Part shown: positions 10,512 to 56,452 of the stretch, piece after piece | Layout: every line of letters starts with the position of its first letter | Position numbering within the stretch: position 1 is the first letter of the stretch | Source of the DNA: TPA_inf: Saccharomyces | Taxonomy: Eukaryota | DNA length: 64,000 nt | Assembly: GCA_000146045.2 (NCBI GenBank) | Contig: BK006939.2 | Location: 256,001 to 320,000 of the forward strand | Direction of reading: 5' to 3' | Translations under genes and position numbers: made by a program | The notes under the pieces: generated by a model | Seen by the model: only the letters and a program-made list of their open reading frames with translations | What the model was told of the DNA's origin: nothing | The model's database searches: none

Positions 10512-12113
10512 CTAACGACCGAAGTATTTTAATTCTAAAGGTCTTAAGATGTTGTAGATGATGAAGGCCCAACTTGCACCCAACTCGAACCCAATGTCAC
10601 CACCATATTTACCAATTAAGCGGCCAATTTCACCAACCCAATAGGTTTGACACATACCCAATGCAACACCGAAGGCACCAACAATTAAGGCAGCAGTACC
10701 TGCGATACCGATAGGTAGATGCTCCCAATTATCCCAATCATCAATATTGTAAGCACTGAAGGAACGTCTGTAGAAGAAATGTTCTGAACATGAGATGGCA
10801 ATGTAAATAGCTAAGTAGTAACCGATAGAATCCATGAAATTCTCCATAAAGCCATCAAAGTAATAGGTAGCAGGGATGGAAATACCTAAAGTGGCAGCAT
10901 TACCTGCCATTGTCCAGACTACTCTTGGTATTTTAGCCAAAGGTGCCCACAAAGCTTGAGCGGATAAAGCAACAGTATACATATTTGGAATATTATTTGC
11001 AATAGTGGACAGAGCTAACAAAACGCAGCAGAATTGACCAAATCCGTTCAGAGAGTTAGGAACCAGGATAGCATATATGACACCACCCATAGCATTTTTG
11101 TCATAATATGCCTTCCAGGTTGGGTCATTAAGAGCAGCCATAGCAGAAGCAGCACCAAGAATCATGGTGAAAAATAGAGGGAACGCTAGACCAGCAACTA
11201 GGGAGAAAAAAATCTTGTACTTGTTTGTACTCTTTGGCATATAAACAGTGTAGTCAGCTGCATAGGTCGTCCATCCTGCGGCAAAACCGAAAATAGATGA
11301 ACCAAAAGAAAGAACACTACCTGCAGTAGTTGCACCTCCTACCCATTCACCACCTTTAAACTTTCCTGATCTCGATAGTTGGGCAATAATAACCAAAAAG
11401 ACGGCAAAATTGGGTACCCATGACCATTTCTCGTATGCATGAATGACACTGTAACCAAAAAAAGTCACAAGCACGGTACCACCAATAATGATCAGACAAC
11501 CGGCCCAAATAGGACAGACGTGGCCGGAGCCTTCATTCACCATATTCAGCAGTTGTGCGGATACTGAGGTATTCACAATACCCCAACCGACACAAGCAAT
11601 AACGTTAATAAGAGAGAAAATTCTTGCCGTTACATTACCAACCAGATATCTTGATAAAATCATCTGTCTTAAGCCCAGTTCTGCACCAAAGACAGAAAAG
11701 AACGCAACAAATATCAACCCCATTATATTGAAAAATATGATAACTAAAACACTTTGACCAAAATTTAGACCGAACACCATGGGTCCTAAGGCACCCAAAG
11801 CATATGATGCAATGACCATATTAGCTGAAAACCACATGGACGCAGCATTCAGTATGGAATCGTCCGTTTTTTCATCCTCTGTAACTGGTTCAACACCCTT
11901 TGTTTCTGCATTCAAACTGGCAAAGAACTTATGGAACCACGATAATTTTGTGGCCTCTGATGATTCAACGATATACTGTTGGTCATCTTCGGAAGTTGCT
12001 GTGAAAGTTTCAGAAGCGGCTACCTTCTTTTCGTTTTCCAAGCTTGAGCCTATTACAGGAGATCTCTTCTCCAAGTCTTGGATTTCGTAAACATTATTTC
12101 CCTCTTCCAACAT
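10512..12113 (-). CDS. FCY2: Purine-cytosine permease (NCS1 family), 533 aa
   Basis: Polytopic NCS1 transporter. 533 aa matches Fcy2 (YER056C). It is the paralog of the two downstream + strand genes. Confidence 0.92.
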   Translation of the reverse strand: MLEEGNNVYEIQDLEKRSPVIGSSLENEKKVAASETFTATSEDDQQYIVESSEATKLSWFHKFFASLNAETKGVEPVTEDEKTDDSILNAASMWFSANMVIASYALGALGPMVFGLNFGQSVLVIIFFNIMGLIFVAFFSVFGAELGLRQMILSRYLVGNVTARIFSLINVIACVGWGIVNTSVSAQLLNMVNEGSGHVCPIWAGCLIIIGGTVLVTFFGYSVIHAYEKWSWVPNFAVFLVIIAQLSRSGKFKGGEWVGGATTAGSVLSFGSSIFGFAAGWTTYAADYTVYMPKSTNKYKIFFSLVAGLAFPLFFTMILGAASAMAALNDPTWKAYYDKNAMGGVIYAILVPNSLNGFGQFCCVLLALSTIANNIPNMYTVALSAQALWAPLAKIPRVVWTMAGNAATLGISIPATYYFDGFMENFMDSIGYYLAIYIAISCSEHFFYRRSFSAYNIDDWDNWEHLPIGIAGTAALIVGAFGVALGMCQTYWVGEIGRLIGKYGGDIGFELGASWAFIIYNILRPLELKYFGR

Positions 12114-18566: not shown

Positions 18567-20153
18567 ATGCCTCAAACGCACGAAATGTCCCTGAACGGCA
18601 CTCAATACTTAAAATATGAACTTAAAGACCTTGAGTCTCGAGCTCACGATGCAAAGACTCCTTCAACAAATGAATTCTATGATGATGTAGAATCGCACGG
18701 AACAGAAGAATTAGTTGAAGCTAAACTGTCGTTTTTGAACAGAATTGCTGCTGGTTTAAGTGCCGAGACAAAGGGTATTGAACCGATTACAGAAGATGAA
18801 AAAACTGATGATTCTATACTGAACGCTGCATCTATGTGGTTTTCAGCAAATATGGTTCTGCCTGCTTATGCCATTGGCGCCCTAGGGCCTATGGTGTTTG
18901 ATCTAAATTTCGGCCAAAGCGTTTTCGTTATTATTTTCTTTAACCTCTTAGGCTTGGTATCAGTTGCTTTCTTTTCTGTTTTCGGTGCAGAGCTGGGCCT
19001 AAGACAGATGATTTTGTCTAGATATTTAGTTGGCAATATCGCAGCCAGGATCTTCTCTTTCATCAATTTTATTGCCTGTATCGGTTGGGGTATCGTTAAT
19101 ACCGTAGCAAGCTCGCAAGTCCTGAATATGGTTAACCCCGGTCATCAATGTCCTCTCTGGGCTGGTTGTATAGTTATTATCGGTGCTACTGTAATTGTAA
19201 CTTTTTTCGGCTATGGAGTCATTCATGCTTACGAGAAATGGGCGTGGGTACCAAATTTTGCCGTTTTTTTGGTAATAATTGCTCGTTTGGCAAGGTCTAA
19301 AAAATTTGTCCTTGGGGAGTGGACATCTGGTCCTACTACAGCAGGTAACGTGCTTTCATTTGGATCAACAGTTTATGGGTTTGCTGCAGGCTGGACAACA
19401 TATGCGGCTGACTATACCGTTTATATGCCAAGGAAAACGAACAAGTATAAAATTTTTTTCTCGCTTGTAGTTGGGTTAGCAACACCATTATATTTTACTA
19501 TGATACTTGGTGCAGCTGTAGCAATGGCAGCTATCGGCGATCCAGCCTGGAAGACGTATTATGACGAAAATTCCATAGGTGGTTTAACTTTTGCCGTTCT
19601 TGTCCCTAATTCTGTTCACGGATTCGGTCAGTTCTGTTGCGTGTTATTGTCTCTGTCCACTATCGCTAATAATGTTCCCAACATGTATACTATTGCTTTA
19701 TCGGTGCAAGCCACGTGGGAACCTCTTGCGAAAGTCCCAAGAGTTATTTGGACTTTATTAGGCAATGCGGCCGCACTGGGTATTGCCATTCCTGCCTGCT
19801 ACTATTTTTCTACCTTCATGAATTACTTCATGGATTCCATAGGTTATTATTTGGCTATTTATATTGCCATTGCATGTTCAGAGCATTTTATTTATAGGCG
19901 TTCCTTCAGTGCTTACAATGTTGATGATTGGGATAGTTGGGAACGTCTACCTATCGGCATTGCAGGTACTGCTGCCTTAATTGTTGGTGCCTTTGGCGTA
20001 GCGTTGGGTATGTGCCAAACTTATTGGGTTGGCGAGATCAGCCGTTTGATCGGAGACTACGGTGGTGATATTGGATTCGAGTTAGGACTAAGTTGGGCAT
20101 TTATAGTTTACAACATTGCTAGACCCTTTGAGCTCAAGTACTTTGGTCGTTAA
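18567..20153 (+). CDS. FCY21: Purine-cytosine permease paralog, 528 aa
   Basis: NCS1-family protein highly similar to Fcy2; matches YER060W. Confidence 0.9.
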   Translation: MPQTHEMSLNGTQYLKYELKDLESRAHDAKTPSTNEFYDDVESHGTEELVEAKLSFLNRIAAGLSAETKGIEPITEDEKTDDSILNAASMWFSANMVLPAYAIGALGPMVFDLNFGQSVFVIIFFNLLGLVSVAFFSVFGAELGLRQMILSRYLVGNIAARIFSFINFIACIGWGIVNTVASSQVLNMVNPGHQCPLWAGCIVIIGATVIVTFFGYGVIHAYEKWAWVPNFAVFLVIIARLARSKKFVLGEWTSGPTTAGNVLSFGSTVYGFAAGWTTYAADYTVYMPRKTNKYKIFFSLVVGLATPLYFTMILGAAVAMAAIGDPAWKTYYDENSIGGLTFAVLVPNSVHGFGQFCCVLLSLSTIANNVPNMYTIALSVQATWEPLAKVPRVIWTLLGNAAALGIAIPACYYFSTFMNYFMDSIGYYLAIYIAIACSEHFIYRRSFSAYNVDDWDSWERLPIGIAGTAALIVGAFGVALGMCQTYWVGEISRLIGDYGGDIGFELGLSWAFIVYNIARPFELKYFGR

Positions 20154-20571
20154 CGAAAGTTCATTTAAATGTTTCGCTATTTTAGTCTTTGTAATGTAAC
20201 ATAAATGGCTCTAGTATGCAAATCATTAAAAAATAGCATGTATGTTAATTAAATTATCACGGCTCATTCATTTGAGTTGATAACGCAATTCTGATAAGCA
20301 TATCACGTGACTGTGGTTCTAAGAGTTACTCCGATCGCCAGTAAATACTTTATGAGACGTTGCATTATTTCTGTTTAGTTGATAAATTTTGATTTCTAGT
20401 CTGTTGAAAGCCTAATGCATGCAGATGACATAAATGTAGTCTGTTTTTGCACTGGTGATTTGTAAACCAGACAAATATATAACATGATAACCAAATTGTT
20501 TGTTATAAGATACGCTTGTCAGATTGAAATGGAGGGTGTTTCAGAAGGTGACTAAAATATCGAAGAAAAGT

Positions 20572-22164
20572 ATGCCAGAAAAGTTAGCCATGTCAATGGT
20601 CGATATAAAAGATGCGGGGAGTGAACTAAGGGACCTCGAATCTGGAGCTCTGGACACAAAATCTTCCGCCGCTGATGTATACTATGAGGGTGTAGAATTG
20701 CATAGAACCAACGAATTCATTGATAATAAGCCGTCCTTTTTCAATAGGATTGCAGCTGCTTTAAATGCTGAGACGAAAGGTATTGAACCAGTTACAGAAG
20801 ATGAAAAAAATGATGACTCGATACTCAATGCCGCCACTATATGGTTTTCAGCTAATATGGTGATTGTAGCCTATTCCGTAGGTGCCTTGGGTCCTCTAGT
20901 ATTTGGCCTAAATTTCGGCCAAAGTGTTTTAGTTATCATTTTTTTCAATATTTTGGGTTTGATCCCTGTTGCATTATTCTCACTTTTTGGGGTAGAACTG
21001 GGCCTAAGACAGATGATTCTATCGAGATATTTGGCTGGTAACATCACAGCAAGATTTTTCTCTCTTGTTAATGTCATTGCTTGTGTCGGTTGGTGTGTTT
21101 TAAATATTTCTGTTTCTGCTCAACTTTTGAATATGGTGAATGAAGGCTCTGGGCACAACTGTCCTATTTGGGCAGGTTGTTTGATTATTGCTGGTGGTAC
21201 CGTGCTTGTGACTTTTTTTGGTTACAGTGTCGTTCATGCATACGAAAAATGGTCGTGGGTACCCAATTTTGCTGCCTTTTTGGTCATTATTGCCCAACTA
21301 TCGAGATCAGGAAAATTTAAAGGTGGTGAATGGGTAGGGGGTGCAACTACTGCAGGTGGTGTTCTTTCTTTTGGTTCATCTGTTTTTGGGTCAGCTGCGG
21401 GTTGGGCGACTTATGCAGCAGATTACACTGTTTATATGCCAAAGACCACAAGTAAATACAAAATTTTTTTTTCCGTAGTAGCCGGTCTAGCGTTCCCTCT
21501 ATTTTTCACCATGATTCTTGGTGCTGCTTGCGGTATGGCGGCCCTTAATGACCCAACCTGGAAGTCATATTATGATAAAAACGCCATGGGTGGTGTCATA
21601 TATGCTATCCTGGTCCCTAACTCTCTAAACGGATTCGGTCAATTCTGCTGTGTTTTGTTGGCTCTTTCAACTGTTGCTAATAATGTCCCTGGAATGTACA
21701 CTGTCGCTTTATCCGCTCAAGCTTTGTGGGCACCTTTGGCTAAAATACCAAGAGTAGTCTGGACAATGGCAGGTAATGCTGCCACTTTAGGTATTTCCAT
21801 CCCTGCTACCTATTACTTTGACGGCTTTATGGAGAATTTTATGGATTCCATTGGTTATTATTTGGCTATTTATATTGCCATTGCATGTTCAGAGCATTTT
21901 ATTTATAGGCGTTCCTTCAGTGCTTACAATATTGATGATTGGGATAATTGGGAGCATCTACCTATCGGTATCGCAGGTACTGCTGCCTTAATTGCTGGTG
22001 CCTTTGGAGTAGCGTTGGGTATGTGCCAAACTTATTGGGTTGGTGAGATCAGTCGTTTGATCGGAGAGTACGGCGGTGACATTGGGTTCGAGTTAGGCGG
22101 AAGTTGGGCGTTCATCATCTATAACATTGTAAGACCTTTAGAACTCAAATATTTCGGTCGATGA
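20572..22164 (+). CDS. FCY22: Purine-cytosine permease paralog, 530 aa from Met17 of the track ORF
   Basis: NCS1-family protein; matches YER060W-A (530 aa). The middle is nearly nucleotide-identical to FCY2 and the 3' end nearly identical to FCY21 (see findings). Confidence 0.88.
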   Translation: MPEKLAMSMVDIKDAGSELRDLESGALDTKSSAADVYYEGVELHRTNEFIDNKPSFFNRIAAALNAETKGIEPVTEDEKNDDSILNAATIWFSANMVIVAYSVGALGPLVFGLNFGQSVLVIIFFNILGLIPVALFSLFGVELGLRQMILSRYLAGNITARFFSLVNVIACVGWCVLNISVSAQLLNMVNEGSGHNCPIWAGCLIIAGGTVLVTFFGYSVVHAYEKWSWVPNFAAFLVIIAQLSRSGKFKGGEWVGGATTAGGVLSFGSSVFGSAAGWATYAADYTVYMPKTTSKYKIFFSVVAGLAFPLFFTMILGAACGMAALNDPTWKSYYDKNAMGGVIYAILVPNSLNGFGQFCCVLLALSTVANNVPGMYTVALSAQALWAPLAKIPRVVWTMAGNAATLGISIPATYYFDGFMENFMDSIGYYLAIYIAIACSEHFIYRRSFSAYNIDDWDNWEHLPIGIAGTAALIAGAFGVALGMCQTYWVGEISRLIGEYGGDIGFELGGSWAFIIYNIVRPLELKYFGR

Positions 22165-29240: not shown

Positions 29241-30914
29241 CTATTTCTTTACGCCATTTTCTTTGAATTGATCTTCTGTGACACCGGTTCCCATAGCAGC
29301 TGTTGCGCTAACACCACCTTGAGCTAACTTCAATAACCCATCGATGTACTCCGCACCAGACCATTTTTGATGTTTCAACACATCAACACCATCGTCCATT
29401 TCCCTCTGCTGAACATTCTGGGCATAAGCTTTCATCCCATCCTTGGCAAAGTCACGAGAGAAGTTATGGACAGCTAAAGCGTTAGTGTGTAAACCGGCCA
29501 ATGTGATAAATTGCCAGATGTAACCTAGATCACCCAGCCTTTGGATGAAGGTGTGTTGTTCATCAACGGACATGGCTTTTGGCCAGTTAAAGGATGGAGA
29601 CAAGTTGTAAGCTAGCCATTGGTCAGGGAATTTCTCTTTAACACCTTCTGCAAACTCCTTGGCCTGTTGGAAGTCTGGGTAGTTAGATTCCATCCATACC
29701 AAATCAGCATATGGAGCAAATGCACGGGCCCTCATGATAGAACATTGCGTCCCACCTCTGTAACGGTACAACCCTTCCCTTACGCGTGGTAGCTCCCAGT
29801 CGAAGAAAATTTCGTGGCCAAGAATTTCTTTAGCGAGCTTCTTGGCTTCTCTGTGGGATGTTTCAGTCAATGGACCCACTTTAGAGGTGAATTTCTTAAT
29901 CAATTCTTGCTTATTTGACAGGGCTGATCTTTCAATTTCATCAATGACGGCTTCATGGAATAACTTGAGTCCAGCGTCTCTACACCATTTTTGTTCAATG
30001 TCAGCTAGTTCTTGTCCTGATGCACCACTCATGATGGCATCATTTAAAACTTCGGCAAATGGCTCGATATTTGGATTGGTGGCACCGACAATGAAATAAT
30101 GATCTCTGGTATCGATGGTTGAGCTAATCAAAGTGGCTGCTTCTGAATCAGTCCTAGCAACGACAATTAAGTCAGAATGCATGATATCAGCACACATTCT
30201 AATAGTCACCAATCTGTTAACATGTTCCTGAACGGGTATAACACATCTTCCTGCCATATGCCCACATTTCTTATTTGTAGATGTCTGGTCTTCCATGTGG
30301 ATCCCAGCAGCACCACGCTCAATGAACATCTTGGTCAATTTGAAGACTGCGGTTAAACCGCCGTGGCCTGCGTCTGCATCAGCGACAATTGGTGTTAGGT
30401 AGTCAATTGGGGCACCCATCTCATCGAGTTCTTCCTGAGATTTAGCCTTTGACCGTGCCTCTAGTTGTTTTCTGTCGTGAAACAATTGGGCCTTGAACAA
30501 ATGTTCCACTTTGTTTGGAACGGTGTCCATTGGATAATCAGCTAAGTCTGGACCAGGTTCATTTGAGGTGGAAGCAGTTGATGAACACTGCCAACCAGAA
30601 ATATAGATTGTGTCTAAGTATTTTGCCATTTGAGAAATCTGGACAGGATCTAGGGCACCGAAAGTTTTAGAGACTGTACCCTCATTGTGATGCTTCTCTA
30701 ATACCTTGAATAATTTTCTGGCCATGACCGAAGATGGGTATTCGATTGGTGGGAATGTCCCGCGTCTAACAGCAATATCTCTGGCTGAATAATTTCTCTT
30801 AGTCTTACTCCAACGTGAGTCAGACCACCATTTCTCAATTTCGGCAGCATCTGCATCTAGTTTTGCTTGTAAAGCTGCAAAATCGTTCTTCGTATTTCCA
30901 ACGGGGATAGGCAT
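29241..30914 (-). CDS. ICL1: Isocitrate lyase (glyoxylate cycle), 557 aa
   Basis: ICL signature KKCGH present; matches Icl1 (YER065C). Confidence 0.93.
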
Positions 30915-31699: not shown

Positions 31700-32065
31700 C
31701 TCTTTCTTTGATACGAAACCTCAAGCGACGTAGGTGATGGATATATTCACAAGATAACAAAGGCCGTGTTACAACATTAGATATGTAAACAACGTGCTAG
31801 AAGTTCTCCTCGAAGATCTCGAAATCTACAAAAGGGAATCGATATTTTATACATAATCCTATTATTATTTTTTCTTCCATTTTATATGCTCACTCATTAT
31901 CCTTTACATTTCCAAAATCATGCATTTCAGCTTCCATTAAATTTTGATGGCTGTCTCTTAATTTTGTTATCTTTCTTTATGTCATCCTCTTACAGAGTAT
32001 ATGGTAATATACTAGTAATATGATTAATAGTCGATAAGTGAGTGTGAATTTTTATTCCGAAAAAT
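31700..32065 (-). mobile_element. Diverged solo Ty1/Ty2 delta LTR (minus orientation) 3' of tRNA-Ser
   Basis: Reverse-complement matches to delta core blocks: 'gctagaagttctcctcgaag' versus TACTAGAAGTTCTCCTCGAGG, 'tttcagcttccattaaatt', and 'atactagtaatat...tttattccgaaaa' versus ...TTTCTATTCCAACA. Boundaries are approximate. Confidence 0.6.
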
Positions 32066-32441
32066 ATATGACGATGATCACACTATATTTTCTAGAAATA
32101 ACTTAAACCATAGTGAATAAGAATCTGTAGTGCTCCTTGAGAACTAATGAAATTGCGCTAAAAACAAACCTAGTTAACATAATGTTTAGGCCAGGAAGAA
32201 TCTAAATACAAACCTTATCAGTCCCAGCGTACGCGTCATTTACATTTGCGTATTGAAAATGAAAAAAAAATAATTCATTTGAAGCACTACTATTACAAAA
32301 TTTATTCCAGCCCAACATTCAGTTTGGAAGCATCAAACGGCCTTCGACCATATGAAGATATTCCAGTAAATATGGTCTCCAAGCAGTTCAACTACTTTTC
32401 ATGAATGTAGCATTTTCAAGGCACCTCTAACAATAAAAAAA

Positions 32442-32523
32442 ACGACACCAGCAGGATTTGAACCAGCGCGGGCAGAGCCCAACAGATTTCAAGTCTGTCG
32501 CCTTAACCACTCGGCCATAGTGC
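32442..32523 (-). tRNA. tS(UGA)E: tRNA-Ser (anticodon UGA), 82 nt with a long variable arm
   Basis: Reverse complement reads GGCACTATGGCCGAGTGGTTAAGGCGACAGACTTGAAATCTGTTGGGCTCTGCCCGCGCTGGTTCAAATCCTGCTGGTGTCG. A-box and B-box (GGTTCAAATCC) are present. The anticodon loop is cuTGAaa. Confidence 0.93.
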
Positions 32524-33629
32524 CTATCATTATGAATTTCCCAAAAAAGAACCACTATCAGAGACATATAAAAATAAGAACACATCCACCGATATCTGTT
32601 ACAATGAAACCCTAAAATATCATCCATTTGGGGTAGTATTCATGCTACCAGTATATCCTGTATGCGTAATATTATAGCCTTTTCCAACAGTGCACCCAAA
32701 TATAATCACAAATCACCCAATTCTCAAATTCACTTGTTAAAATGAAAATACCAAAGCCTCATCATACCGTTCTATTGTCCATCTCCAACACAAAAGTACC
32801 ATAATAATTTTCCGATTCGACACGAATACAGATAGATGGGCACATGGCAAACTTAGCTCAGTATGGGCTTGTAGGTTGTAAACGAGTCAGAAATTTCAAC
32901 AATAAAAAATACATCAGATAGTGTTTCGATGTTCTTAATTACACGTGAATTATCAAAAACCATCAACATACCAGCCAACATCAGTGTAGGTGGAATAAAA
33001 CTTTCTTACCATGTACAGTAAATGGACCATGACGCCGTGCACAAGCTTATGCATAATGAGCTAAGCGGGAAGACATTTTCAAACTACGTGATAGTTCCGA
33101 CTGCCCTTTCAATTGCTAATGTAGCAATATGTTAGGAATGCAATATTCCAAAATGCTGTCTGTGTCAGTGAGAATAACAAAAACATTGAATAAACTTTTC
33201 TATGGTAATAACCACGCCAGATAAGGGCGTTGCCATCGTTTTCATTTTTTTTTTTTTTTCAAATGGTGGGGTCACCGTTGTGAAAAGAAACCTTTGATTC
33301 TCAACCATATCGGTACTCGGACTAATCACTTAAATCTTTCCAAGGGATTATCGAGAATGTCATAGTGCAAAATAATCTTAGCTTTCAATAATTTTTTCAT
33401 TTGGAGTCACACTCCCGTTAAAACCTAGTCAACGGCTTCCACTTAAAGCTATCAACAAGGGGCAATTGATTTTGCATTTTCGTCTAAATGAAAGTTGCAG
33501 CCAGCAATTTACCCGAAGTTTAAATAAATCAATGCAAACCATGTTCAACTTAAACAGCAATCGCTTTCTATTACCTTGGAATTATATCAGAACGTCTATC
33601 TGCGAAGCTTTAATAAAGTACTGGAAGTT

Positions 33630-34799
33630 GTGTCTGAAATGTCTGTTTTGGTAAATTTGTTTGATCCTGATTATACACCTCAAAGGACCACGTTAAGTGG
33701 CCATATGACGAGTGTTATTGCGTGCTTGCAAGTTGAAGATAATTATGTCATTACAGGAGGATGTGATAAAACGATCAGAGTTTATAACTTAGTAAATAAA
33801 AGATTTCTTTTACAACTATCAGGTCATGATGGTGAGGTTTGGGCATTGAAGTATGCCCATGGCGGTATTTTAGTCAGCGGTTCTACAGGCAGAACGGTGC
33901 GAGTTTGAGATATTAAGAAAGGTTGTTGTACCCATGTGTTTAAAGGTCATAACTCTACGGTGAGGTGCCTAGATATAGTAGAATATAAAAATATCAAGTA
34001 CATTGTTACTGGTTCGAGAGATAACACTTTGCACGTTTGGAAATTGCCCAAGGAGTCCTCCGTTCCTGATCATGGGGAAGAACATGATTATCCATTAGTC
34101 TTTCATACCCCTGAGGAGAACCCATATTTTGTTGGTGTTTTAAGAGGACATACGGCGACTGTAAGAACTGTCTCAGGCCACGGTAATATTGCCATTAGTG
34201 GCTCCTATGATAATACATTGATTGTGTGGGATGTTGCGCAAATGAAATGTCTATATATCTTGAGTGGACATACGGATCGTATTTATTCGACAATCTACGA
34301 TCATGAAAGAAAAAGGTGCATCTCTGCCAGTATGGATACCACTATTAGAATTTGGGATTTGGAAAATATAAGGAATAATGGAGAATGTTCCTACGCAACA
34401 AATTCAGCATCGCCATGCGCCAAAATACTTGGTGCTATGTACACTTTGCGGGGTCACAGAGCCCTAGTCGGTTTATTGGGATTATCCGATAAATTTTTAG
34501 TCAGTGCTTCTGTAGACGGTTCAATAAGGTGTTGGGACGCTAACACTTACTTTCTGAAGCACTTTTTCGATCACACGCAGTTGAATACAATCACCGCATT
34601 GCACGTTTCTGATGAGGTATTAGTGAGTGGATCTGAAGGTTTGCTCAATATTTATGATTTAAATAGTGGGCTGTTAGTCCGTTCAGATACATTGAGTGGT
34701 GCTGATAATGTTTGGAACGTTAGTTTTAAGGACAACACACTTGTGGCAGCGGTAGAACGAGACAAGCGAAATCTTTTAGAAATTTTGGACTTTAGTTGA
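33630..34799 (+). pseudogene. RRT13: Truncated CDC4 paralog: WD40-repeat region only, with an in-frame TGA at 33906-33908 where CDC4 has Trp. The downstream ORF portion 34242..34799 (185 aa) corresponds to annotated YER066W
   Basis: The translation (…PQRTTLSGHMTSVIACLQVEDNYVITGG…LSGHDGEVWALKYAHGGILVSGSTGRTVRV*DIKKGCCTHVFKGHNSTVRCLDIVEYKNIKY…EILDFS*) is about 85-90% identical to the Cdc4 WD40 domain. The F-box and N-terminus are absent. The stop falls in the frame of the RVWDIKK motif. Confidence 0.8.
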
Positions 34800-36065
34800 A
34801 GATTGATGTGAGAATGATGCAGAACTTACCTTGTCACGTTTGGAACTCAGTTGTACTTTTTCGGTGTAAACAAATATAAAACTTTAGAATTTACATTAAT
34901 AAGTTATGTGCTATTTATTAGTTTAATATATCAACATTAATTACATGCGAGCTATGTATTATTAGCTCAATCAGCAGGACTAAAATCGAGGAAAAAGTAA
35001 TTTTGTTTATGCCCAGTTCAGTTATCGTCCATTTGTAGCAAATGTGGTACAAGTTGACCCATATTTTCATGCATTGGGCCATGCAGTAATTATCACACTC
35101 ACTTTGTCATAATGTATACAATGGCCGCTTATTTGCGACTCGTCTCATATTTTTCCTGAAACTGTAGCTGTGTGTAATATTATTCATTAACTTCGATAAT
35201 TCGGCTACAGAAGACAAGAGCTACATCCTTACTGGTGCGAATAAATGACATAATCTGTCAAGAGTACCGAAGTAAAAGCAACGATTGCCGAACACATCTT
35301 CCTGAAGTATCATATGCCAATACAAGGTTTCAATAGGAATTATGAAAGCGGCATTATCACCCTTAATCTGAAATATGTAATGATGACGGTGCAGTATGTT
35401 GACTACATTGTAAAGTTGCACTTTCACTCAACTCATGAAATTGATGACATTAATCCTACGTGACTTACACATATGCCATGAACGAAGAAGGTGGCACCAA
35501 AAATCCAGCGTTTCCGATATACACGCAGTCAAATGTTCAGACTAAACTTTGGTATTCTGACAACGTGTTGTCATACCTGTTACGAGCCAGAAACGTATTT
35601 CTTTTTGGGTGATACAATCTCCAGATGACTGCTTTTTTTTTTTTTACCCCAGATTCAGGGGCCGAAGGAACGGAAATGCGGTGTGGCGAGATTGCGGATG
35701 TGCTAAAAAATAATATCCTCGAGGCAACCAGCATAATGTGGACGGCTCTCGGCAATTGACTTCCATAACAAATGCATCCTGTAATCAGGGGTATTATAAG
35801 TTACTGTATGGTTAATTAAATATAGAATGAAAGGGGCAGCGTTCTTAAGGGGTATTGCTGGGTGGAAAAATACAAGTGTCTTTACTTGATTGTGTGCACA
35901 TATATAAGGCAAAAGATTTCTAGCGTATATTTGAATCTTTTGTTCTTCCACGTTCAAATTTCTTTGGTCAAAACATTTCATAAAGGGACAAGTTCTGCAT
36001 TGTATTCTAATAATTGCCCATAGAACATATAAATTAGGTATCGACTGTTTTCGTCTCCACTTTAA

Positions 36066-36551
36066 ATGACAAAGAAGGATAAGAAGGAAGTAAAAGTTCA
36101 AACGGTTACCACGGAGGATGGTGAAACCGTGAAAGTTTTTGAAGACCTGCAGGGTTTTGAAACTTTCATTGCCAATGAAACTGAAGATGATGATTTCGAT
36201 CATTTGCACTGTAAATTAAATTACTACCCACCATTTGTGCTACACGAGTCGCACGAGGACCCTGAAAAAATTAGTGATGCTGCAAATTCTCATTCTAAGA
36301 AGTTCGTGCGTCACCTGCACCAGCATATTGAAAAGCATCTTTTGAAAGATATTAAGCAAGCCGTTAGGAAACCTGAGCTTAAATTTCACGAAAAATCGAA
36401 GGAAGAGACATTTGATAAAATCACCTGGCATTACGGTGAGGAAACTGAATACCATGGTAGACCTTTCAAGATAGACGTTCAAGTAGTTTGCACACATGAA
36501 GATGCTATGGTATTTGTCGATTACAAAACACATCCTGTAGGCGCAAATTAA
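36066..36551 (+). CDS. RGI1: Respiratory growth induced protein, 161 aa
   Basis: 161-aa acidic protein; matches Rgi1 (YER067W). Confidence 0.82.
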   Translation: MTKKDKKEVKVQTVTTEDGETVKVFEDLQGFETFIANETEDDDFDHLHCKLNYYPPFVLHESHEDPEKISDAANSHSKKFVRHLHQHIEKHLLKDIKQAVRKPELKFHEKSKEETFDKITWHYGEETEYHGRPFKIDVQVVCTHEDAMVFVDYKTHPVGAN

Positions 36552-55199: not shown

Positions 55200-56022
55200 G
55201 TTCTATATGATAAGTAGATCTGTGTTGCTGATGGAGAAGGGAGATACAATACGGATTTTCTATGAACTTTGCAGTGATAAGAGCACCTACGCTATTATAA
55301 CACCGATGTTAGAATAATATGCAAGTTTGTGGTCTGTGTATACAGTTCTTTGTTTGTGCTTGAAGTGATGATGTTACATGTCAAAGAAAGAAAACCGCTA
55401 AGGTCAATGAAAATATAGTGTTACATCCGCCGGTGCAAATGGCGAGGAGAAGATTGGACTCTTGCGCATCGAACACTACCTATCTGCATCCATCCATGCC
55501 AGGTGCGCAAACTGTTGGGTCTGGCTAACACCACATTCTCGCTGCGCTGTGTTCTCCGATGACGTTTTGCCGCAAAATATTTTTTTCATGAAGGTCTTTT
55601 CTTTTCGTTCAGCGTCAGCGGGCCCAAATCTCAAAGTCGCCGCCATTCTGTTTAATGTTTAAAGTTTCCGCTCACTACACCAAGATGGCAGCAGGAGATG
55701 CCAGAAAAAGCGTGGGGTCTGGTCTGGTTAGATATTAGAAGTACATACACATCGGTGGGTGTGTAGCAGTGGCGACACATAAAATGGCCATAATGGGGGT
55801 GATTTTACGTATAGCATACATAGACATCTGTCGTTGAGGTTCGCTACCAGTGAACGGATTTAACGAGCAAGCAGCGAAAGTAGCCGAAAACCTCTTATTG
55901 TTAATAGTCATTTAGCAGCCGTTCTGCTGCTGTTTTCCTGTGGGGTGAGGTGGGCTGTGATTCGGTAAACTCGCTTGCGGTCTAACAAAAACAGAGAAAA
56001 ACTTGGTACAAAAAGATTTCAT

Positions 56023-56095
56023 TGGACGCAACCGGAATCGAACCGATGACCTCTTCCTTGCAAGGGAAGCGCGCTACCAACTGCGCCATGTGCCC
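56023..56095 (-). tRNA. tA(UGC)E: tRNA-Ala (anticodon UGC), 73 nt
   Basis: Reverse complement reads GGGCACATGGCGCAGTTGGTAGCGCGCTTCCCTTGCAAGGAAGAGGTCATCGGTTCGATTCCGGTTGCGTCCA. It has a G3:U70 pair and a B-box GGTTCGATTCC; the anticodon loop is cuTGCaa. Confidence 0.92.
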
Positions 56096-56109
56096 AGAAT
56101 TTCTGTATG

Positions 56110-56452
56110 TGTTGGATCTCAACACGGGGTACCTCCGTATAAGCAATTTTAACCCGTAGATGATTTTAGAGTTTCGTTCCTACACGCATGAAAAAGGTAA
56201 GATTGAGTATGCCTAAGATGAACCAATCAAAGTTATAAATACCTGAAGAAATGAGTTTAGATCTGTTGGATGGTGAAACATAAAAAACAGAATGAGGAAT
56301 AATCGTAATATTTTTATGTAGAAATATCAAGTCCATTGTAAGGATTCTAATATCCTCGAGGAGAACTTCTAGTATATTCTGTATACATAATATTATTGCC
56401 TTTATCAACAACGGAATCCCAACAATCATCTCAAAGTTCACCAAAAGTCTCA
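56110..56452 (+). mobile_element. Diverged solo Ty1/Ty2 delta LTR (about 340 bp) starting 14 bp upstream of tRNA-Ala
   Basis: Starts 'tgttgga…' and ends '…atcatctcaaagttcaccaaaagtctca' (compare delta …ATTATCTCAACATTCACCCATTTCTCA). The core 'gaatgaggaataatcgtaatatttttatgtagaaatat…atcctcgaggagaacttctagtata…ggaatcccaacaat' matches the delta consensus. Confidence 0.75.

Follow-up and report, generated by a model that had tools for sequence, protein, structure and literature searches.

The RRT13 frame and its premature stop

The window analyzed here is a 64,000-nucleotide (nt) stretch of Saccharomyces DNA (GenBank assembly GCA_000146045.2, contig BK006939.2, positions 256,001 to 320,000), and the feature under study is a plus-strand relative of CDC4 located between ICL1 and RGI1. 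Translation of 33576-34799 gives a single frame of 386 codons plus a stop, which opens with an ATG at 33639, closes with a TGA at 34797-34799 and is broken by one internal TGA at 33906-33908. The 185-residue open reading frame (ORF) at 34242-34796 is residue for residue the Rrt13p of strain S288C (NP_010988.1, "Regulator of rDNA transcription protein 13"), and the feature is the annotated gene RRT13 (YER066W). A preliminary description of this DNA had presented the feature as a truncated CDC4 paralog. The locus is not new and is known in kind, because public annotation already contains it under its name and records that it resembles CDC4. The literature searched, in which one older re-annotation paper naming YER066W was unreadable, gave no account of selection on the 386-codon RRT13, of two-way conversion with CDC4 or of the reference ORF being what a nonsense allele leaves downstream of its stop.

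The conceptual 386-residue protein matches the crystallized Cdc4 chain 1nex_B over residues 3-386 (E=4.6e-193), with Met1 aligned to Cdc4 residue 359 and the premature stop aligned to Trp448. The conceptual protein and S. cerevisiae Cdc4 share 80% amino acid identity across 392 residues. Nucleotide identity is 84.9% across 33646-34882, corresponding to CDC4 nt 1082-2335, and is distributed highly unevenly, from 57% to 100% per 60-nt block. The frame terminates in ...EILDFS*, and DNA homology to the CDC4 tail continues for about 83 nt, to 34882. Pfam searches with pieces of RRT13 retrieved WD40 and beta-propeller families only and found no F-box, and the Cdc4 dimerization (D) domain PF16856, which is among the Pfam hits of full-length CDC4 proteins, is absent from those listed for RRT13. 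Homology to Cdc4 begins at residue 353-359 in S. cerevisiae, where neither blastn nor tblastn found F-box relics upstream. Without an F-box and without PF16856, RRT13 is not an F-box protein or a substrate receptor of the Skp1-Cul1-F-box (SCF) type, and its product would therefore be unable to join Skp1-Cul1. These results agree with the preliminary description of a WD40-only CDC4 paralog that lacks the F-box and the N-terminal half, ends before the CDC4 C-terminal tail and carries a TGA exactly at a Cdc4 Trp codon in a frame otherwise intact over about 390 codons. The near-complete propeller that it proposed appears to be a whole one, whereas the amino acid identity that it gave, 85 to 90%, was slightly overstated.

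The AlphaFold (AF2) model of the intact allele has a predicted local distance difference test score (pLDDT) of 92.3 and a predicted template modeling score (pTM) of 0.90. It superimposes on Cdc4 chain 3v7d_B of the Skp1-Cdc4-pSic1 complex with a template modeling (TM) score of 0.91 and a root mean square deviation of 1.1 Å, and the intact product is thus predicted to be a complete eight-blade WD40 propeller of the Cdc4/Fbw7 type. S. cerevisiae RRT13 alleles conserve the phosphate-binding arginine triad R467, R485 and R534 (Cdc4 numbering) and the surrounding pocket, including R443, S464, T465, Y574, G636, L637, T677 and W717. The equivalents of Y548 and W426, likewise pocket residues of Cdc4, are also kept in these alleles. 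Most of the list of phosphodegron-contact residues comes from PMC8341979. The pocket is mostly retained in the RRT13 proteins of S. paradoxus and S. mikatae, the exceptions being R443, which is Ser in S. mikatae, and I676, which is Thr in S. paradoxus. A 228-residue protein of Zygosaccharomyces parabailii that bears the name RRT13 (P0041) looks like a fragmentary model of CDC4.

The premature stop is a polymorphism that segregates within S. cerevisiae. The coding sequence in the window is not uninterrupted, having one stop and no insertions or deletions (indels). A protein search retrieved an intact 386-residue version with 99% identity, P0001, at the head of a cluster with 117 members in which further intact 386-residue models from named S. 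cerevisiae strains are listed. One such intact locus (L002) has the gene order of the window and differs from it in the RRT13 ORF at only 4 nt, all nonsynonymous or nonsense: 33835 (A in the window, G in L002), 33889 (G, A), 33908 (A, G; stop, Trp) and 34603 (A, G). The truncated 89-residue product is encoded by 31 + 8 + 1 contigs. It has D84 in 31 of them (represented by P0179) and G84, the S288C type, in 8 (P0182, identical to the fragment in the window). A sequencing error was considered as the cause of the stop and ruled out by the recurrence of the same truncated product in dozens of independent contigs. The lesion is not fixed, since many strains carry intact alleles, and the recent pseudogenization suggested by the preliminary description is upheld. 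The codon in question reads TGG not only in intact S. cerevisiae alleles but also in S. paradoxus and S. mikatae. G84 replaces a conserved WD40 aspartate and is confined to stop-bearing haplotypes, so D84G most likely arose after inactivation.

Several database entries for this gene are misleading in themselves. The automatic models P0002, P0005, P0209 and P0219 skip the region of codon 90 as a spurious intron, giving proteins of 336 to 364 residues in which the stop is hidden. P0218, a 418-residue model from the S. cerevisiae CPS_HP allele, is an RRT13 allele with a CDC4-type N-terminal patch, and its frame is fused to a short upstream ORF that starts near 33530 (window frame 33466-33654), which adds a 32-residue N-terminal extension. 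A 120-residue hypothetical protein ascribed to Streptomyces tubercidicus (P0188; GAA2247997.1), from a 523-nt contig, is identical to the C terminus of yeast Rrt13, and this bacterial record almost certainly contains contaminating yeast DNA.

Table 1. Positions in the window of RRT13, its parts and its neighbors
Feature	Position	Strand	Remarks
RRT13 (YER066W) full-length frame	33639..34799	+	Predicted complete eight-blade Cdc4-type WD40 propeller, Cdc4 residues 359-744; one interruption
Premature TGA, codon 90 (Cdc4 Trp448)	33906..33908	+	TGG in CDC4, in the uninterrupted S. cerevisiae alleles and in RRT13 of S. paradoxus and S. mikatae
89-codon N-terminal ORF left by the stop	33639..33908	+	WD repeats 1-2; carries E66 (33835 A) and G84 (33889 G)
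Annotated 185-residue YER066W/Rrt13p ORF of S288C	34242..34799	+	First in-frame ATG after the premature stop; WD repeats 5-8 only
Zone of concerted evolution with CDC4	33686..34436	+	45/47 informative sites group by species
Core conversion tract	33811..34152	+	342 nt; intact allele and S. cerevisiae CDC4 100% identical
RRT13-specific 3′ third	34457..34796	+	Codons 274-386, from the end of WD repeat 6 through repeats 7-8
Decayed untranslated remnant of the CDC4 C-terminal tail	34800..34882	+	Homologous to CDC4 nt ~2236-2335
Quartet block, RRT13 nt 3-38	33641-33676		Groups by gene, 9 sites
Quartet block, RRT13 nt 48-798	33686-34436		Groups by species, 45/47 sites
Quartet block, RRT13 nt 819-1155	34457-34793		Groups by gene, 46/47 sites
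Isocitrate lyase gene (ICL1)	29244-30914	-	
Degenerate delta-like long terminal repeat (LTR) fragment	31770..32069	unassigned	On the 3′ side of tRNA-Ser
tRNA-Ser(UGA)	32443..32524	-	RRT13 neighbor; syntenic in S. cerevisiae, S. paradoxus, S. uvarum and the S. eubayanus-type genome
Second, small LTR-like fragment	32645-32733		
RGI1-family gene	36066-36551		

Concerted evolution with CDC4

The uneven identity between RRT13 and CDC4 has a clear spatial structure. A quartet analysis of RRT13 and CDC4 from S. cerevisiae and S. paradoxus, with 102 informative sites, divides the gene into a short 5′ block and a long 3′ block that group by gene and a central block that groups by species (Table 1); the third possible grouping occurs at no site. 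Because the central block groups by species and not by gene, it indicates that the central two-thirds of RRT13 have been homogenized with CDC4 independently in the two species. Within this zone, the window allele departs from CDC4 in the core tract at just three positions, 33835, 33889 and 33908, each by a derived change that is nonsynonymous or nonsense. In the intact allele, the adjoining segment at 34153-34449 has only 10 differences from CDC4, and the flanks are 57 to 77% identical. Synonymous divergence (dS) in the core is 0.06 between the paralogs RRT13 and CDC4 versus 0.63 between RRT13 orthologs. Selection alone as the reason for the identical core was ruled out, as synonymous sites are identical too and informative sites group by species. 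In S. uvarum, RRT13 is over its whole length closer to the CDC4 of that species than to S. cerevisiae RRT13. The CDC4 locus used for comparison was L006; another, L001, was discarded for its many frameshifts, which probably stem from errors in assembling long reads. The close resemblance of RRT13 to CDC4 reflects recurrent gene conversion and not youth.

Mosaic alleles at both loci show exchange in both directions. CDC4-type patches of varying extent are present in S. cerevisiae alleles of the RRT13 locus (P0208, P0211, P0215, P0217 and P0218), and RRT13-type residues are present in full-length, 779-residue CDC4 alleles (P0197, P0199, P0202, P0203 and P0204, of which P0197, P0202 and P0203 belong to YJM strains). 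Of the CDC4 loci of two S. cerevisiae assemblies, L011 has the RRT13 base at 24/24 consecutive diagnostic sites between CDC4 nt 1589 and 1949, and L012 has it at 21/21 diagnostic sites between nt 1134 and 1271, including the RRT13-specific E66 variant. Both L011 and L012 (2501-4840) have the normal flanks of CDC4, namely, a sugar-transporter gene, a WW-domain gene and SMC1. The RRT13-derived tracts alter up to approximately 11 residues of the WD40 domain of CDC4, including G424E next to W426. A cross-mapping or polishing artifact behind these tracts seems unlikely, because they span stretches of about 15% divergence and recur in assemblies of different projects. A contiguous block grouped by species and donor-type tracts in either recipient are thus both found, as expected of concerted evolution by ectopic conversion. 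Among the listed S. cerevisiae alleles, no exchange was seen beyond about RRT13 codon 303.

One further mosaic was not counted as evidence of conversion. P0003 (423 residues, 31 cluster members), encoded at 1135-2406 of Logan contig SRR31701480_4760 (L008), joins the 5′ flank and N terminus of RRT13 to the C terminus of CDC4 with its tail and SMC1, and it is most likely a short-read assembly chimera formed through the 342-nt identical tract.

Age of the duplicate and selection on its unconverted part

The copy sits between ICL1 and RGI1 in five Saccharomyces species, namely, S. cerevisiae, S. paradoxus, S. mikatae, S. uvarum and the S. eubayanus-type subgenome of S. pastorianus. Intact syntenic orthologs are found in S. 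paradoxus (386 residues, annotated as Rrt13p) and S. mikatae (391 residues). This shared position indicates that the duplication is old and predates the divergence of the Saccharomyces species, and the copy is not a recent segmental duplication. Upstream of the ORF, the S. eubayanus-type genome retains collinear stretches of DNA that match CDC4 at nt ~270-419 (E=1e-11) and ~463-653 (E=2e-4), and S. uvarum shows weaker collinear protein-level matches to CDC4 residues ~86-127, 195-226 and from 297. Because of these relics of the 5′ half, the original duplicate must have held most of CDC4, its 5′ half having decayed later.

The 3′ third of RRT13 is not homogenized with CDC4 and therefore reports the evolution of RRT13 itself. 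The ratio of nonsynonymous to synonymous divergence (dN/dS) in this part, calculated pairwise by the Nei-Gojobori method over 113 codons, is 0.21 for S. cerevisiae versus S. paradoxus (P under neutrality, 7e-7), 0.34 between S. cerevisiae and S. mikatae (3e-4) and 0.38 between S. paradoxus and S. mikatae (1e-3), compared with 0.01 for the same region of CDC4 between S. cerevisiae and S. uvarum (4e-29). The 3′ third contains no stops and no indels in the three species, which also keep the start codon at the propeller boundary, and in a rough neutral simulation only about 4% of replicates were still stop-free at 0.3 substitutions per site. These values show purifying selection, far less strong here than on CDC4, and they indicate that the Rrt13 protein was under selection. 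The marks of a long-dead pseudogene, which are a dN/dS near 1, accumulated frameshifts and stops, and a fixed lesion, are not seen, so that the alignment with CDC4 leaves standing the preliminary view of an otherwise sound frame. Furthermore, because viable strains tolerate RRT13-type blocks in the essential CDC4, these blocks argue that the exchanged parts of the propeller are functionally competent.

The order of genes around RRT13 is ICL1, tRNA-Ser, RRT13, RGI1 and a gene for a MOT2/NOT4-like RING protein. The neighbors of CDC4 differ, being HXT10-like, WWM1-like and SMC1, a comparison of immediate neighbors that is relevant to whether RRT13 could be a whole-genome-duplication ohnolog of CDC4. 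The tRNA-Ser gene is an ancient neighbor, syntenic in four of the five species, with the copy on its 5′ side, and was not found within 4 kb upstream of RRT13 at the S. mikatae locus (L004). In S. uvarum, the weakest CDC4-like relic match starts about 100 nt from tRNA-Ser. The tRNA-Ser and delta LTR that had been placed beside the gene are both present nearby; however, tRNA-Ser and the LTR-like fragments, called with a delta LTR probe sequence, lie 0.9 to 1.6 kb from the RRT13 ORF and do not abut it. No recognizable junction, poly(A) or target-site duplication was found at the boundaries of the duplicate, and the present LTR fragments lie off the homology boundaries. The locus is compatible with a Ty/tRNA-associated origin.

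Elsewhere in the window, a tRNA-Ala(UGC) gene (56022-56096, minus strand) adjoins an LTR-like element at ~56100-56400, which carries a delta-type motif also present in the LTR-like piece close to tRNA-Ser. Purine/cytosine permeases (Pfam Transp_cyt_pur) are encoded by three paralogous genes, at 10512-12113 (minus strand), 18567-20153 (plus strand) and 20524-22164 (plus strand). Two of them are in tandem and one is inverted, their repeats are 72 to 87% identical, and they may be another family subject to ectopic conversion.

Interpretation and comparison with known systems

The reading preferred here, with a probability of about 75% as a whole, is that RRT13 is an old F-box-less copy of CDC4, homogenized by conversion, once under selection and recently inactivated by a nonsense mutation in the allele of the window. 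On this reading, RRT13 descends from a CDC4 copy that came to lie beside tRNA-Ser, in the interval from ICL1 to RGI1, prior to the divergence of the Saccharomyces species. The 5′ half of this copy, with the N-terminal region, the dimerization domain and the F-box, decayed, and its 3′ half persisted as an independent 386-codon gene for an eight-blade WD40 propeller of the phosphodegron-binding type, while ectopic gene conversion with CDC4 homogenized the central two-thirds repeatedly. In the window allele, which is of the S288C type, codon 90 changed from TGG to TGA first, with D84G most likely following, and many strains have the intact ORF. A stop at codon 90 of 386 exposes an mRNA to nonsense-mediated decay; the window allele would thus yield an 89-residue fragment from an mRNA that is likely subject to this decay. 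Neither this fragment nor the 185-residue half-propeller is likely to fold, and the window allele is most probably a recently inactivated null.

Several observations weigh against this reading. The S. uvarum and S. eubayanus-type copies are damaged, with the first ~44 codons disrupted and the ORF starting at Met45, and the S. uvarum copy has an additional frameshift at its 3′ end. Within S. cerevisiae, the nonsense allele is common and the intact alleles bear many private amino acid changes, although the alleles are a set of distinct database sequences rather than a population sample, from which no allele frequency can be derived. Damaged copies, the common stop allele and private variants would all be consistent with a dispensable gene undergoing decay in several lineages. 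Taken further, they would fit a pseudogene that is dead in all species and owes its open frame and low dN/dS to repeated conversion by CDC4, with no selection on a protein. Conversion is indeed frequent, the extent of its tracts varies among alleles, the core is held identical to CDC4, disabling lesions are present in S288C-type strains, S. uvarum and the S. eubayanus-type genome, and the literature searched gave no description of a function of RRT13. Nevertheless, a pseudogene dead throughout is unlikely in view of the 3′ third, which without exchange remains free of stops and indels in three species at a dN/dS of 0.21 to 0.38, a value that older conversion events could bias. The start codon retained at the domain boundary and the scarcity of stop-free replicates in the neutral simulation stand against it as well.

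The reference annotation gives the downstream ORF as Rrt13p, and this 185-residue product might be expressed and functional in S288C-type strains. This is very improbable, given that its ATG is merely the first in-frame methionine after the stop, one that CDC4 has internally too, and that the product would comprise repeats 5 to 8 of a closed eight-blade propeller, half of which is unlikely to fold; moreover, the unit conserved elsewhere is an ORF of 386 to 391 codons. The frame is intact on either side of a single stop, as it would be if the TGA were read through as Trp, Cys or Arg, or under [PSI+], and the allele still made some full-length Rrt13. The leaky context for readthrough is UGA-C, whereas the stop here is TGA-G, and the haplotype later gained D84G in a conserved WD40 aspartate, as relaxed constraint after inactivation predicts. 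Readthrough is for these reasons scarcely credible.

With the preferred history of selection followed by recent inactivation, a role can be outlined for the intact allele. Intact Rrt13 would bind Cdc4 phosphodegrons and yet not recruit Skp1/SCF, and it would act as a nondegradative binder or competitor of SCF-Cdc4 substrates, similarly to engineered F-box-deleted Cdc4, which acts as a dominant negative by binding substrate and blocking its degradation (PMC2819241). A decoy function is plausible for the intact allele only and not for the allele of the window. The hypothesis is directly testable, because strains with the intact allele supply a natural F-box-deleted Cdc4. A more ambitious proposal, in which RRT13 and CDC4 form a two-locus system with the intact propeller as a selected "anti-Cdc4" that buffers SCF-Cdc4 substrates such as Sic1, Far1 and Cdc6 and with the RRT13 locus as a sequence reservoir for CDC4, is speculative and distinctly unlikely. 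If it were true, the reservoir would, through two-way conversion, bring amino acid changes in blocks into the domain with which an essential ubiquitin-ligase receptor binds its substrates, stop-bearing strains could in principle export a lethal nonsense codon to CDC4, and loss-of-function alleles such as that of S288C would tune cell cycle proteolysis between strains.

The reference entry, a 185-residue "protein of unknown function," thus covers just the end of an allele cut short by a nonsense mutation. The gene that is conserved has 386 codons, and phenotypes from the S288C deletion collection therefore say little about the real protein. The gene itself is said to owe its name to a deletion-collection screen for altered rDNA transcription in the S288C background. 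RRT13 also offers a clear example from nature in which an essential gene, CDC4, swaps sequence both ways with a truncated and dispensable copy, through which the propeller of a cell cycle ligase gains blocks of standing variation. Naive estimates of dN/dS or of paralog age for this pair are bound to mislead.

The predicted propeller is the same eight-blade WD40 structure as in Cdc4 (YFL009W), the substrate receptor of SCF-Cdc4 in S. cerevisiae, and in human Fbw7. Compared with Cdc4, RRT13 lacks the N-terminal region, the dimerization domain, the F-box and the C-terminal tail, and it is nonessential, polymorphic for a stop and far higher in dN/dS. Like engineered F-box-deleted Cdc4/Fbw7, it has a propeller, in its case a putatively substrate-binding one, without the F-box that recruits SCF. 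Unlike these constructs, RRT13 is natural and chromosomal, also lacks the dimerization domain and, in the window allele, is cut off at codon 90. With other strain-polymorphic disabled ORFs of S288C, it has in common one early stop in the reference-type strain, a frame that is intact elsewhere and a reference annotation that covers only the ORF downstream of the stop. It differs from them in that the stop sits in a tract whose sequence is shared with an essential paralog, and conversion could therefore repair the stop or, in principle, export it to CDC4.

Yeast paralog pairs that evolve in concert by ectopic gene conversion have been cataloged (e.g., PMC2515631), and such conversion has been documented in general, although not for RRT13 and CDC4, by Doniger et al. 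(2008). RRT13 and CDC4 resemble these pairs in having contiguous tracts that include synonymous sites and in that paralogs within a species are closer than orthologs. They depart from the usual pairs in that a truncated, dispensable and sometimes nonsense-bearing copy is matched with an essential cell cycle gene, and in that the exchange between them is bidirectional and yet ends before the last ~85 codons.

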